64,000 nt of DNA from an uncultured Christensenella sp. (GCA_949296965.1 CASFQL010000021.1:15247-79246), one strand, 5' to 3'; shown: positions 36,938 through 40,815, counted from the stretch's first letter. Program-made: numbers and translations. The notes: generated from the letters alone by a model not told the origin.

Positions 36938-37013
36938 GGACGACTAGCTCAGTTGGTAGAGCAACTGACTCTTAATCAGTGGGTCCAGGGTTCGAGTCCC
37001 TGGTCGTCCACCA
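36938..37013 (+). tRNA. tRNA-Lys (anticodon CUU), CCA encoded
   Basis: The sequence is GGACGACTAGCTCAGTTGGTAGAGCAACTGACTCTTAATCAGTGGGTCCAGGGTTCGAGTCCCTGGTCGTCCACCA, with anticodon loop CTCTTAA. Confidence 0.95.
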
Positions 37014-37020
37014 AAAATTA

Positions 37021-37050
37021 AGATAATACTTAAATTGTATTGTCTTTTTT
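37021..37050 (+). terminator. Rho-independent terminator after tRNA-Lys
   Basis: AGATAATAC-ttaaatt-GTATTGTCT (one T-G pair) followed by T8. The same hairpin is repeated at 37223-37252. Confidence 0.7.
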
Positions 37051-37181
37051 TTATTATTTGGACCCACTGATAGAGTTCTCAAAAATAGCAACAAAGTGAA
37101 ATTTTTGAGATATGGGTAAAACCAAGCAAAAAAGTCGTATTTTGCGTCAAGCAAATAGACATTAGCGAGTGTTTTACCCAA

Positions 37182-37252
37182 GGGTCCAGGGTTCGAGTCC
37201 TAAAATCTTCCACCAAAAATTAAGATAATACTTAAATTGTATTGTCTTTTTT
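37182..37252 (+). pseudogene. Duplicated 3' portion of tRNA-Lys (variable/T-arm, CCA) plus its terminator
   Basis: GGGTCCAGGGTTCGAGTCC (37182-37200) is identical to 36981-36999. TCCACCAAAAATTAAGATAATACTTAAATTGTATTGTCTTTTTT (37209-37252) is identical to 37007-37050. The 8 nt in between differ (TAAAATCT vs CTGGTCGT), so no acceptor stem can form. Confidence 0.85.
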
Positions 37253-37402
37253 CATTTATTTACTATGGAAGATGTAAAAAAGAAAAAATTAAAAGAAAAA
37301 TTTTATGCCAAAATTTTAAAGTTTTTTGCCCCTTTAATATAAAAAAATACATTTCAATTTTAGAAATGTATTTTTTCGATTTTAGAAATGTATTTTCGTT
37401 TT

Positions 37403-37891
37403 TTATTCTTTAACATAATCTGCTTTTGAAACTTTGAAAGTTGTTTTTGCAAGTTCAACTTTTTCTGCACCATTCATATAATAAATTTCAACTGACCAAT
37501 CTTTGTCTAGGTCTTCCTCTGCCCAACCTATCATAATTTTGACAATTTTATTTTCTTGGTTAGGAGCATCTTTATCAACATAAATGCCCGTTTCCGCGTC
37601 TGATGTTAATTCAAAGTCTTGGTTATCCTTTAAAATCCATTTAATTTCCGTTTTATCAACCAAACTGTCATCTATGTCGTAAATTATAATTGTTCTATGC
37701 CTGCTATCTGCTTTAACATCTTCCAAAACACTTTGAGAAAAATAACTTGTAATCTGCTCGTCAGTCATATTTTTTGTATTATAAAGTGTTAACTTAGAAG
37801 TTTCGCCACAACCAATTAATAAAAAAGAAGTCCCTACAAAAATAGATAGCAAAAACAAACCTAAAAAAATATTTTTAAACTTTTTCATCAT
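37403..37891 (-). CDS. Lipoprotein of unknown function
   Basis: 162 aa with the signal peptide and lipobox MMKKFKNIFLGLFLLSIFVGTSFLLIGC. The RBS is AAAGGAGGG. Confidence 0.8.
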   Translation of the reverse strand: MMKKFKNIFLGLFLLSIFVGTSFLLIGCGETSKLTLYNTKNMTDEQITSYFSQSVLEDVKADSRHRTIIIYDIDDSLVDKTEIKWILKDNQDFELTSDAETGIYVDKDAPNQENKIVKIMIGWAEEDLDKDWSVEIYYMNGAEKVELAKTTFKVSKADYVKE

Positions 37892-38054
37892 TCCCTCCTT
37901 TACTATATTATGTGAAAATAATTAGTGTTTATTAGTTAATTCTTATAATTTAAAAAATATTTTAGTATAAAATGAACAAAAAAATTTCTTTCTATTGATA
38001 CCTAAATTTTAATATGCTAAACTCATTATATAAATATAAGGAAAAGGAAATAAT

Positions 38055-39065
38055 ATGAAAAAACAAACTCAATTTGAATTAAAGAGAAAATTTAAAATTT
38101 TGAAACTAATGTGCGACTTTTCAAGTGAGGAAACTAAGGAAATACTTAATTCCTGTCCAAAGATGTTTAAGTATAGCGAAAGTGAATTAATTAACTTTTC
38201 TCAAAACTTAAATAAGATTACAAAAAATAGCAAGACAAAAATGGATATCATTAAAGAATATGGCAGTTGTATTGAAAATGACGATTGTGTATTGAATAAT
38301 TTAGACGAATTTTTAGGACTTTTGAACTTTAAACTATCCGACTTTGATAATTGTAAAACTAATGTTTATAGTTTTTTGACTCTTAATTATGATGATGTTA
38401 GAAAACAAATATCTATCATAAAAGACAAACTAAGTATTAATAACCAAGAACTTCGTAAATACTTTTTAAATAGAGCACAGCGTTTTTCTTTGGACTATAA
38501 TTTAATTTGTAATAATTTAATATTTTTAAAATCTCTATTTAATTTTTCAAACACGGACCTTTTAAATTTGTTAAATAATAACCCTTATTTTCTTTTTAAA
38601 AGTAAAAAATATTATATAAATTTATATAATAAATATCATCAACTTGATGTCCCTAACAAAATAGATCCTGCAATTTTGAAGTGTATTGAAAAAGAAGATT
38701 TCTTTATTAGATATTTCTTTAATATTATTGTTAATGATGAAATAAAATCTCCTTTCTATTCATATAGTTTTCAAAGAATGTGGGCTAGATATTGTTTCCT
38801 ATACAATGTAGACAAATCTTTAATTTCTCTAAGAAGTTTGGGGGCTTCTTCTAGTAGTTTTGAAAAAATTTACAAAGTTACAGATGAAGACCTATTAAAA
38901 AAATATCCATTAGGCGAAAAGACAATTCAAATTATTAAACAAAGATATAGGAGCCTTTATCCTAATGCTTCCGTAAAAGAAATGCGTGTTTTGAACAATT
39001 TAAGCGTTGACGATTTGCCTAAATTTTATGCTAGAAGAGAAGTGGAAGAAGAAATGAGTATGTAA
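38055..39065 (+). CDS. Hypothetical all-helical repeat protein (weak mTERF-like periodicity)
   Basis: 336 aa with a good RBS. It has recurring about 30-aa units of the form F(S/N)..E..(K/N).L...P..F..S..EL (DFSSEETKEILNSCPKMFKYSESEL; FNFSNTDLLNLLNNNPYFLFKS). No enzyme motif is present. Confidence 0.55.
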   Translation: MKKQTQFELKRKFKILKLMCDFSSEETKEILNSCPKMFKYSESELINFSQNLNKITKNSKTKMDIIKEYGSCIENDDCVLNNLDEFLGLLNFKLSDFDNCKTNVYSFLTLNYDDVRKQISIIKDKLSINNQELRKYFLNRAQRFSLDYNLICNNLIFLKSLFNFSNTDLLNLLNNNPYFLFKSKKYYINLYNKYHQLDVPNKIDPAILKCIEKEDFFIRYFFNIIVNDEIKSPFYSYSFQRMWARYCFLYNVDKSLISLRSLGASSSSFEKIYKVTDEDLLKKYPLGEKTIQIIKQRYRSLYPNASVKEMRVLNNLSVDDLPKFYARREVEEEMSM

Positions 39066-39300
39066 ATTGTTGTTTAAAAATTTTGATAAAATAAATTTTA
39101 AAAATTAAGATATGATAAGATTTTTCTTAAATTTATTTTAATAATAAAAAAAAACTATAAGTTAACTAATAAACTAAATTTTCAAAAAATTTTTATCAAT
39201 TTAAAAAACTACTAAGCAATCTTTGACTAATTTTTTACCTAAAAATTATATAAAAATACTTTATAAAAATAAATATTACTTTCATTTTTTGTATATAAAA

Positions 39301-39345
39301 AAGAACTTTATCAACATTAATTTTGATAAGGTTCTTTTGTTTTTA
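39301..39345 (+). terminator. Rho-independent terminator
   Basis: AAGAACTTTATCAA-cattaatt-TTGATAAGGTTCTT followed by TTGTTTTT. It lies 236 nt downstream of the 38055-39065 stop. Confidence 0.6.
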
Positions 39346-39596
39346 TTAAGATTTTTATAAATTTGATATTTTTTATGTCAAAAAAATAATTTAACTATGT
39401 TTTTAGACTTTTACTTCTTTTTTCTTAATTTTTTTATATCTTAAATCTCCTTATTTTATTTATTTGTTAAGTTATGTAAGTTTTTAATGTTTAATTTTTG
39501 TATGTTAAATTATTTAGTAAAGATTTTTGTCCTATTAGTTAAAAACTTGTTGGGCGTAAGTATGTAAATAATGTGTAATGCAACTATTTTTTAACT

Positions 39597-39693
39597 CGGG
39601 CACGCTTTTAAAATTAAGTTTCAAAATTTGAAACTTAATTTTAAGAAATGAATATTTCTTGCTAGTTTTTCAAACTAGCAAAAAGCGTGCCCG
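39597..39693. repeat. Sequence-unrelated element with the same closing-stem plus three-hairpin (four-way junction) architecture
   Basis: CGGGCACGCTTTT | AAAATTAAGTTTCAAA-a-TTTGAAACTTAATTTT | AAGAAAT-gaat-ATTTCTT | GCTAGTT-tttca-AACTAGC | a | AAAAGCGTGCCCG. Every helix is perfect with 0-1 junction nucleotides. It lies in a convergent spacer. Confidence 0.8.
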
Positions 39694-39705
39694 TAAATTT
39701 AATTT

Positions 39706-40815
39706 TTATAACAAAACAAACTCAATTTTAACAGGGTTATGGTCAGAATACATAAACTCAGTATCAATATTTGTAACACTATTAACTTGTATATTTGACG
39801 AAACAATAAATCCATCAATGACAACGAGATAGGACTCACCTTCTATATATCCCGTATCGCTTGACCTACAAGTAGGGGCATTTTTACTTGAAGCCCAAGT
39901 ATAGCCACTAGTTAAATCATCATTAGTTAACTGAAAAACCCAATCAGGTTGTTTTCTATTAGTTGGAAAGTAGCCCACCGAATCTGCTATATCGTGGTTA
40001 AAATCTCCACCAACAATAACATAATTATCTTTTTTGCTTTCCTCTTCTAAAATTGAATTTAACATATCTAGTTGTTTTGCCCTAATCTTTCCACCCTCAT
40101 CGTAAGCACTCATATGAATATTAATAAGCACAAGTTCTTTTGAACTATCACTTATAGGAAGTCTATTTACTTGAAAGCATCTATCAAGGTCAAAAAATTT
40201 ATTTGGAAAACTTTCGTCAACAGGCAAACTTCTTCTAACTGCACTTGAAATATTGTATTTACTAAGGGTAACAATTCCTGCGTCGGTTTTGCCATGTGGA
40301 TTAAAGATAGGATACATCAAAAAAGCACTATGAAAATTCATTGAGATTGAATTTGAATATTCTTTAAAGTTATCTTGTATGTATTCATATTGATTATAAT
40401 AATAACTCCTAGTTGCTTTAACATCAACTTCTTGAAAAAATGCAAAATCCGTGTTTAATTGTTTTATTGTATCCACTGCCCCGCTAGTATTATTTATTAC
40501 AGTTTTTAAATCTTTTGCGACACTACCACTACCCTGCAACTTGACTCCGTCAAGTGTTTCTCCGCTATCCATAAAAAACGAAAAATCTTGCGAATAAGCA
40601 CCAAAGCCAATATTAAAAGTAGATATGCTTAAATTTTGTCCAAGTTGAACAAGTTCTTCCCTATTATTATTTACAGTGATTTTATAATTGTCTTGTATTC
40701 TGCTATATTGCAACACAACATATAGCACATAGCCTCCAATTAAAAAAATAATCACAGCAAGCACAATCGCAACTGTCTTAAAGATATTTTTTAAAACTTT
40801 ACTTTTGACTGCCAT
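39706..40815 (-). CDS. Endonuclease/exonuclease/phosphatase (EEP) family protein, membrane-anchored
   Basis: 369 aa with an N-terminal TM (VAIVLAVIIFLIGGYVLYVVL). EEP motifs FFQEVD, GGDFNHD and SDHNPV are present. The RBS is AAAGGGGGGAG. Confidence 0.85.
   Translation of the reverse strand: MAVKSKVLKNIFKTVAIVLAVIIFLIGGYVLYVVLQYSRIQDNYKITVNNNREELVQLGQNLSISTFNIGFGAYSQDFSFFMDSGETLDGVKLQGSGSVAKDLKTVINNTSGAVDTIKQLNTDFAFFQEVDVKATRSYYYNQYEYIQDNFKEYSNSISMNFHSAFLMYPIFNPHGKTDAGIVTLSKYNISSAVRRSLPVDESFPNKFFDLDRCFQVNRLPISDSSKELVLINIHMSAYDEGGKIRAKQLDMLNSILEEESKKDNYVIVGGDFNHDIADSVGYFPTNRKQPDWVFQLTNDDLTSGYTWASSKNAPTCRSSDTGYIEGESYLVVIDGFIVSSNIQVNSVTNIDTEFMYSDHNPVKIEFVLL

Follow-up and report, generated by a model that had tools for sequence, protein, structure and literature searches.

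Within the 64,000-nt stretch of DNA from an uncultured Christensenella sp. that was analysed here (the window), a 97-nt element at 39597-39693 probably represents a single-copy, highly diverged member of a genus-restricted superfamily of 70-105-bp nested-palindrome intergenic repeats. The members of this superfamily, which are found in a few species of one genus, consist of a closing inverted repeat around exactly three hairpins, and they comprise one recently amplified lineage, the GGACTWTGTGC main family, as well as older low-copy divergent members including the element at 39597-39693. Across the members the shape is kept while the sequence changes almost completely. Repeats of this small intergenic kind are usually recognised by their sequence; in this superfamily, members without BLAST-detectable similarity keep one strict topology. 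The present analysis adds that this outlier can be placed in the same structural superfamily, that the topology is exclusive and above chance, that it extends to at least six species and that positional partners of differing sequence type exist.

All stem and hairpin coordinates given for the element in the initial annotation were correct when rechecked in the window. The 13-bp closing stem is formed by the 5' arm CGGGCACGCTTTT (39597-39609), which pairs perfectly with the 3' arm AAAAGCGTGCCCG (39681-39693) and which, in the main-family covariance model introduced below, aligns to the closing helix. It encloses three perfect hairpins, resulting in a four-way junction. Hairpin 1 (39610-39642; AAAATTAAGTTTCAA-AAT-TTGAAACTTAATTTT) has a 15-bp stem and a 3-nt loop, hairpin 2 (39643-39660; AAGAAAT-GAAT-ATTTCTT) a 7-bp stem and a 4-nt loop, and hairpin 3 (39661-39679; GCTAGTTT-TTC-AAACTAGC) an 8-bp stem and a TTC loop; these hairpins and the 3' arm are present in both the RNA and the DNA folds, and the hairpins align to model helices 2, 3 and 4, respectively. 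All of the 43 base pairs are Watson-Crick pairs, and only one junction base, A39680, is unpaired. Judging from the sequence, an exchange of pairing partners would be possible between the outer AAAA/TTTT of hairpin 1 and the TTTT/AAAA that ends the closing stem on its inner side. The minimum-energy RNA fold is the four-way junction on both strands (-47.1 kcal/mol), with z scores of -10.8 for the plus and -10.6 for the minus strand and none of 200 shuffles folding as well, and the DNA fold reaches -37.3 kcal/mol (z = -11.8). An Rfam 15 search of the window at the gathering threshold returned five tRNAs only and no family at 39597-39693.

The stem with three hairpins is far more frequent in the genome of the window (G000) than expected by chance. 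The whole 1.147-Mb genome (27.4% G+C) was searched with a descriptor consisting of a perfect outer inverted repeat of at least 9 bp, whose arms lie 45-140 nt apart and whose outer stem is kept in the RNAfold minimum-energy fold, around n simple hairpins of at least 5 bp with a maximum of six unpaired junction bases; eight genomes shuffled with dinucleotides preserved in 2-kb blocks served as controls. We found 94 three-hairpin designs in the real genome, 92 of which fold below -22 kcal/mol, compared to a mean of 0.4 in the shuffled genomes, all weak (-14 to -22 kcal/mol). Two-hairpin designs occur at chance level (six, all weak with -6 to -20 kcal/mol, vs about five in the shuffled genomes), and the four-hairpin design was found once in a weak form (shuffled genomes: 0) and never in a strong one. 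Since strong two- and four-hairpin forms are missing, the strongly folded nested palindromes of this genome take the three-hairpin form only. The initial annotation had raised the possibilities that such architectures are similarly frequent in dinucleotide-shuffled sequence or that the element is unique in its genome. Neither is the case: the whole-genome shuffles rule out a chance origin of the design (94 vs 0.4), and eight other non-main elements are present in the genome, with more in five other species.

About 83 of the strong elements belong to the main family and nine, among them the element at 39597-39693, do not. All 92 are located in intergenic DNA, although 80% of the genome is coding. 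They are distributed over tandem (65), convergent (19) and divergent (7) spacers roughly in proportion to spacer length, with a mild enrichment near 3' ends (17/85 within 30 nt of a stop).

The main family is characterised by an 11-bp closing stem with the ends GGACTWTGTGC / GCACAWAGTCC and by three adjacent hairpins, GTAAAAATTTT..., GTGAAGTTTT... and the short CAAAAGT-GAA-ACTTTTG. The closing stem CGGGCACGCTTTT does not correspond to this consensus, and a pattern search for the latter in the window returned known copies only. Likewise, the short hairpin of the main family (CAAAAGT-GAA/TTC-ACTTTTG) is not matched, with hairpin 3 sharing only an AGT...ACT core and the TTC loop. By BLAST, the element is unique in its own genome, where the sole partial match is an AT-rich likeness to hairpin 2 of one main copy, and no copies were detected in 200 genomes of the taxonomic family, in which partial matches were restricted to AT-rich hairpins. 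On the basis of these 200 genomes a high-copy family elsewhere was rejected, the BLAST partials being AT-rich hairpins such as an ordinary terminator-like hairpin in G115. Scanning genome and metagenome collections for the closing-stem pattern gave 25 loci, all of which belong to one unrelated Methylococcaceae-type inverted-repeat element with the ends TGGGCACGCTTTTGTGCCCAC and one long imperfect hairpin, so that the 12-mer match is due to chance.

Beyond the BLAST level, the element does resemble the main family. A covariance model (R2), in which the four helices were specified and which was derived from 36 copies of the main family, matches the element over its full length (39600-39691, plus strand) with 36.3 bits (E 4e-5 for the window) and with 30.8 bits on the minus strand. 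On the same scale, true main copies reach 74-101 bits, their wrong-strand matches 40-51 bits and the background a maximum of 17 bits. Because wrong-strand matches of true copies already attain 40-51 bits, we read the score of the element as driven mainly by architecture; it lies within the range that architecture alone gives and does not by itself prove homology over convergence. Helix order, spacing and helix lengths are collinear with the model. In addition, a flank motif, TTTAGTTGYAGTAGACAT, is located about 10 nt outside the closing stem in 33/83 main copies (1% in the null), and a resembling motif, AATAGTTGCATTACACATTATTTA, is found on the minus strand at 39565-39588, separated by 8 nt from the outer end of the closing stem and on the flank opposite to the neighbouring gene of the Exo_endo_phos (EEP) family. 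This motif has the same offset as in main copies and a weight-matrix score of 10.2 (p = 0.003 vs random intergenic flanks). In REP/RAYT systems a GTAG is conserved at the 5' foot of the hairpin; the flank motif of the main copies includes a GTAG, and the corresponding stretch next to the element reads GCATTAC. Towards the EEP gene, the end of which is too close to accommodate it, the motif is absent; another non-main element, C10:177285, carries it on both sides.

Further similarities concern the hairpins. Hairpin 3 is nearly identical to GCTAGTT-TTC-AACTAGC of the non-main element G000:C10:138291, and the hairpin cores of the element show short matches to their positional counterparts in main-type copies. 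The mean similarity to other non-main elements exceeds that of 300/300 structure-preserving shuffles (p < 0.004), which may reflect only generic A/T-run hairpins. Moreover, graded intermediates between sequence types exist, e.g. G230 c2:21191 and C21:43823, G230 being a sister species of the same genus. The statement of the initial annotation that the element shares no primary sequence with the main family holds at the level of BLAST only. Of the two options proposed there, one family that is more diverse than its consensus suggests fits better, given the R2 match, the flank motif and a main-type copy at the corresponding site in G230 (see below), and several independent families fit less well in view of the flank motif, the collinear helices and the intermediates.

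We consider it quite unlikely that the element represents an independent family that converged on the four-way shape and is read by one putative structure-specific protein of the lineage. Such convergence could account for the missing BLAST-level similarity, for the differences from the consensus in the closing stem and all three hairpin sequences, for the at least five sequence types of the same design in the genus and for the restriction to the three-hairpin topology. However, the flank motif is common to the main family and the element, helix order and lengths follow the main-family model, each hairpin has a short core in common with the G230 copy at this site, intermediates such as G230 c2:21191 and C21:43823 grade between the types, and no reader protein was identified.

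The distribution in other species is consistent with a superfamily confined to the genus. By BLAST, the main family was detected in one other genome, G230, among 27 genus genomes and 200 family genomes. The descriptor revealed 14 strong three-hairpin elements in G230 (whole genome, 0.95 Mb), about six of the main type and eight of other sequence, and no strong two- or four-hairpin designs. In 274 kb sampled from G159, two elements of a further sequence type with the closing stem GGGGCGACAG were found, a third descriptor match having been left out because it lies inside rRNA. R2 also matched elements of differing sequences in G228, G208 and G109. Since the genome-wide R2 searches scored the best 150 candidates per genome, negatives in these searches do not equal absence, as illustrated by G159, which was negative by R2 and has two elements according to the descriptor. 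No elements were detected by descriptor or R2 in 0.8 Mb from two genomes of other genera. The non-main elements of G000, G230 and G159 are all matched full-length by R2 with 18-51 bits, and altogether the three-hairpin topology is found in at least six species of one genus with at least five sequence types.

Separately, we noted that a main copy (G000:C22:25671-25758) and a sequence-unrelated four-way element (G159:C3:276-356) are each located about 250 nt from the same orthologous gene. After the EEP site described below, this is the second example of corresponding spacers that hold different sequence types.

The pairing pattern indicates that the palindromes are maintained at the DNA level. 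In an alignment of 20 non-main R2 matches, which was fitted to R2 and in which five elements are present on both strands, 98.0% of 697 stem cells are standard Watson-Crick pairs, compared to 53% in shuffled and 31-50% in slid controls. Pairs with double changes amounted to 38/38, and one-sided changes were restricted to two cells of the 697. Across 92 elements, G-T pairs account for less than 1% on both strands, whereas in RNA helices G-U pairs on one of the strands are usually tolerated. From this purely Watson-Crick pairing on both strands we conclude that it is the DNA palindrome that is being preserved; the pattern is the signature of DNA palindromes and not that of an RNA gene. In addition, the loop of hairpin 3 flips among copies (GAA in 43, the complement TTC in 14), and in some orthologous or paralogous copies whole interiors are inverted relative to the closing stem.

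Templated quasi-palindrome correction, a template-switch mutation, would also lead to stems free of mismatches, to double changes that lack intermediates and to flip/flop loops, and would need no reader protein to do so. The scarcity of G-T pairs and one-sided changes and the loop flips are equally well explained by such palindrome-correcting DNA mutation as by a shape-reading protein. The junction-binding or junction-resolving protein, to which the initial annotation had pointed, does therefore not follow from these observations. If the stems are kept by templated mutation, the superfamily would provide a clear natural example of quasi-palindrome correction over evolutionary time.

As noted in the initial annotation, the element is located in a convergent spacer next to the stop of the EEP gene (39706-40815, minus strand; Pfam PF03372, E 2.4e-9). 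The spacer measures 640 nt, and the distance from the EEP stop to the element is 12 nt. Opposite to the latter, the spacer is bordered by an orphan gene on the plus strand (38055-39065, 336 aa) with a weak match to mTERF (Pfam PF02536, E 9.5e-7), which would be unusual in a bacterium. This gene occurs once in the genome, has no counterpart in G230 and retrieved no homologue besides itself from a large protein collection. Because a terminator scan assigned to the plus-strand gene its own ordinary terminator-like hairpin with a T-run (39299-39338, plus strand), the four-way element is not needed for ending that transcript.

It is conceivable, but in our assessment rather unlikely, that the element is primarily a functional 3'-end RNA structure of the EEP gene, i.e. 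a terminator or a block to 3'-to-5' exonucleases, which is selected on the mRNA, with the likeness to the repeats being secondary or repeats having been recruited. In line with such a role, the element follows the EEP stop after only 12 nt, the four-way element of G230 follows the same stop after 20 nt with another sequence type, and the fold is very stable. Main copies in tandem spacers are also preferentially co-oriented with transcription (40 vs 14, p = 5e-4) and are followed by a T-run in 42/77 cases compared to 17/77 on the other strand. The element thus resembles intrinsic (Rho-independent) terminators in that a stable GC-closed stem directly follows the stop, as many main copies do in being co-oriented and followed by a T-run; it differs from them in being branched, 97 nt long and devoid of a U-tract on the EEP strand. 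The tail behind the closing stem on this (minus) strand reads AGTTAAAAAATAG and contains no U-tract, the plus-strand tail TAAATTTAATTTTT is merely T-rich, and a terminator scan flagged only one inner hairpin, weakly. Furthermore, the stems are perfect on both strands without G-U pairs, unlike what is expected for selection on RNA, the genome-wide enrichment at 3' ends is mild (see above) with seven elements in divergent spacers, no Rfam family is matched, and no four-way element was found next to the more distant EEP orthologs in G211 and G218. Under the preferred reading as a diverged repeat, the element, located 12 nt after the EEP stop, might plausibly serve in addition as a stable structure at the 3' end of the EEP mRNA, and some main copies probably double as terminators. 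For annotation, this means that 39597-39693 would be non-coding repeat DNA and not an RNA gene or an EEP-specific regulator.

The same site was compared in the sister species. The EEP ortholog of G230 is 79% identical and is followed, 20 nt past its stop, by a main-type four-way element in the same orientation and then directly by a lipoprotein gene, the G000 counterpart of which is located at 37403-37891. Between the EEP stop and the lipoprotein gene, G000 contains about 1.6 kb extra, and this G000-only segment consists of the element, a 530-nt spacer and the mTERF-like orphan gene. Both species thus carry a four-way element at the EEP stop, the sequence type of which differs, with short cores common to each hairpin of the two copies. 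This situation could have arisen by extreme divergence of one ancestral copy or by replacement; replacement is somewhat more likely, since other orthologous element pairs keep clear similarity. Because four further assemblies of the species carry the element without any difference, neither covariation nor an empty site or movement of this copy is visible within the species.

The segment is also bracketed exactly by a 25-nt direct repeat, TATGAAAAAACAAACTCAATTTGAA (38054-38078) and TATAACAAAACAAACTCAATTTTAA (39707-39731), with 22/25 matches, and is missing from G230. Together with the additional 1.6 kb precisely where G230 has its main-type element, this repeat would be compatible with the element being the recombination site of a small cassette (mTERF-like gene, spacer and element), which replaced the resident four-way element behind EEP in analogy to capture at attC or dif sites. 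We regard this scenario as very unlikely. The direct repeat may be due to chance, with an estimated probability of roughly 0.08 in a region as large as this one, no second four-way element was found at the far end of the segment, the best match to a dif-like site at 37000-40000 (17/28) equals the median of random 3-kb windows, and the orphan gene has no relatives elsewhere that would reveal a travelling cassette.

Comparison of the two sister genomes revealed that the main family spread recently. Among main copies with two-sided synteny, the orthologous G230 site is empty in 47/48 cases, and therefore the main family expanded in G000 after the split. The non-main elements are older than this spread: 2/6 syntenic ones are kept in place in G230, namely C23:5428, which pairs with G230 c2:36810 and differs from it by several double substitutions, and C10:221978, which pairs with G230 c30:41532 and has an interior inverted relative to the closing stem. 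Reciprocally, 5/10 syntenic G230 elements have a partner in G000. Similar non-main elements also occur at non-orthologous sites (C23:54679 and G230 c2:4447). Spacer alignments of G000 and G230 resolved no target-site duplication or clean empty site, the intergenic DNA being too diverged for exact borders, and no direct repeat was found to flank the element at 39597-39693 in the window sequence. Its perfect 13-bp terminal inverted repeat is reminiscent of a MITE, but it is single-copy and lacks such a flanking repeat.

From the features described above, a mechanism can be proposed in which the elements would be non-autonomous mobile DNA that is copied or moved while folded, either as single-stranded DNA or as a cruciform. 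The mover would be a putative enzyme reading the hairpin or junction shape, with a tyrosine recombinase or a Y1/HUH transposase as candidates, and the perfect stems might be kept by a mix of a folding requirement and templated palindrome-correcting mutation.

The genome encodes five tyrosine recombinases and contains at least eight copies of a 28-bp look-alike of Bacillus subtilis dif, ACTTCCTAGAATATAAATTATGTGCTGT (C12:7656, C12:19848, C15:54043, C15:55373, C18:103093, C10:225338, C10:225505 and C23:19954), some of which are arranged in tandem, 164-167 bp apart. The right arm of this look-alike corresponds to the closing stem AAATTATGTGC of one four-way repeat subfamily. With regard to Y1 transposases, an IS200-type gene at G000:C28:586-942 (L053) contains an in-frame TAA, i.e. 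an internal stop, whereas the IS200-type gene of G230 is multi-copy and located at contig ends (C4, C6, C9, C36, C41). When the best 150 R2 candidates per genome were considered, a Y1 gene was present in 4/6 element-positive genus genomes compared to 3/22 others (hypergeometric p about 0.02, the related genomes not being independent). The ends of this IS200-type gene, the only transposase considered as a candidate parent insertion sequence, were rejected as a source of the hairpins because they are unlike them. No RAYT gene flanked by four-way elements was found, the only Y1 gene examined being of the IS200 type.

Several known systems share parts of this behaviour. REP, BIME and REPIN sequences of enterobacteria and Pseudomonas are likewise short, strictly intergenic, palindromic and multi-copy and form lineage-specific sequence families; a Y1/HUH enzyme (RAYT) recognises them in their folded DNA form, and they are often located at gene 3' ends, where they can stabilise mRNA (see also PMC3184786). 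However, REPs are single GC-rich hairpins and REPINs one long hairpin of two REPs, and neither forms a closed stem with three hairpins. The pneumococcal BOX, RUP and SPRITE repeats and bcr1 of the Bacillus cereus group are similar in size (about 100-150 bp), intergenic position, extensive folding, species restriction and modular sub-elements, as well as in copy numbers that differ among closely related genomes and in the influence that they sometimes exert on adjacent genes, but they are defined by conserved sequence, unlike the four-way elements. A literature search retrieved no small repeat with a strict topology of a stem and three perfect hairpins across sequence-unrelated members.

Folded single-stranded DNA creates a tyrosine recombinase substrate in IMEX and in attP(+) of CTX phage, which hijack Xer/dif (PMC5357621). 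A likeness to IMEX is given by the G000 repeat subfamily with the closing stem AAATTATGTGC, which overlaps the dif look-alike ACTTCCTAGAATATAAATTATGTGCTGT; the element at 39597-39693 differs in having neither a dif-like site nor genes, its CGGGCACGCTTTT arm shows no likeness to a Xer arm, and integration at dif is not involved. AAV ITRs also combine a closing stem with small perfect hairpins, a HUH nuclease that reads the shape, and flip/flop orientations. This is an analogy only, since ITRs are T-shaped three-way junctions that act as replication origins at the ends of a linear viral genome, whereas the four-way elements are chromosomal, internal and dispersed.

A more far-reaching reading, which we consider unlikely, is that the recognised and inherited unit would be the four-way, Holliday-junction-like DNA shape itself, on which a putative enzyme of the lineage would act regardless of sequence, so that elements would be propagated, flipped and exchanged at the same site. 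Tyrosine recombinases, junction resolvases and HUH nucleases are candidates for such a shape reader. An exchange of sequence-unrelated elements at one site seems to have taken place behind the EEP gene, with a main-type element in G230 and the element at 39597-39693 in G000. If true, this would constitute a class of mobile DNA that is addressed by its shape, comparable to the attC sites of integrons but built on a closed four-way junction. Were shape alone recognised, sequence-based repeat annotation would miss part of such families, and the superfamily would offer a natural test bed for structure-specific DNA recognition.

Two minor observations were made in the window and in the collections searched. 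The stretch at 36981-37059, which comprises the 3' part of the tRNA-Lys gene (36938-37013) and the downstream terminator-like sequence, is directly repeated 202 bp further on at 37182-37261 with 93-100% identity, an inverted fragment is located at 37060-37078, and the arrangement, which looks like the scar of an element integrated into a tRNA gene, is also present in G230. Furthermore, Methylococcaceae-type DNA with 41-57% G+C (L030-L051, metagenome Ga0209512 and others; L027-L029) contains a multi-copy inverted-repeat element, about 95-105 bp long and with the ends TGGGCACGCTTTTGTGCCCACGCGG, that is unrelated to 39597-39693 and has the 12-mer GGGCACGCTTTT in common with it by chance.
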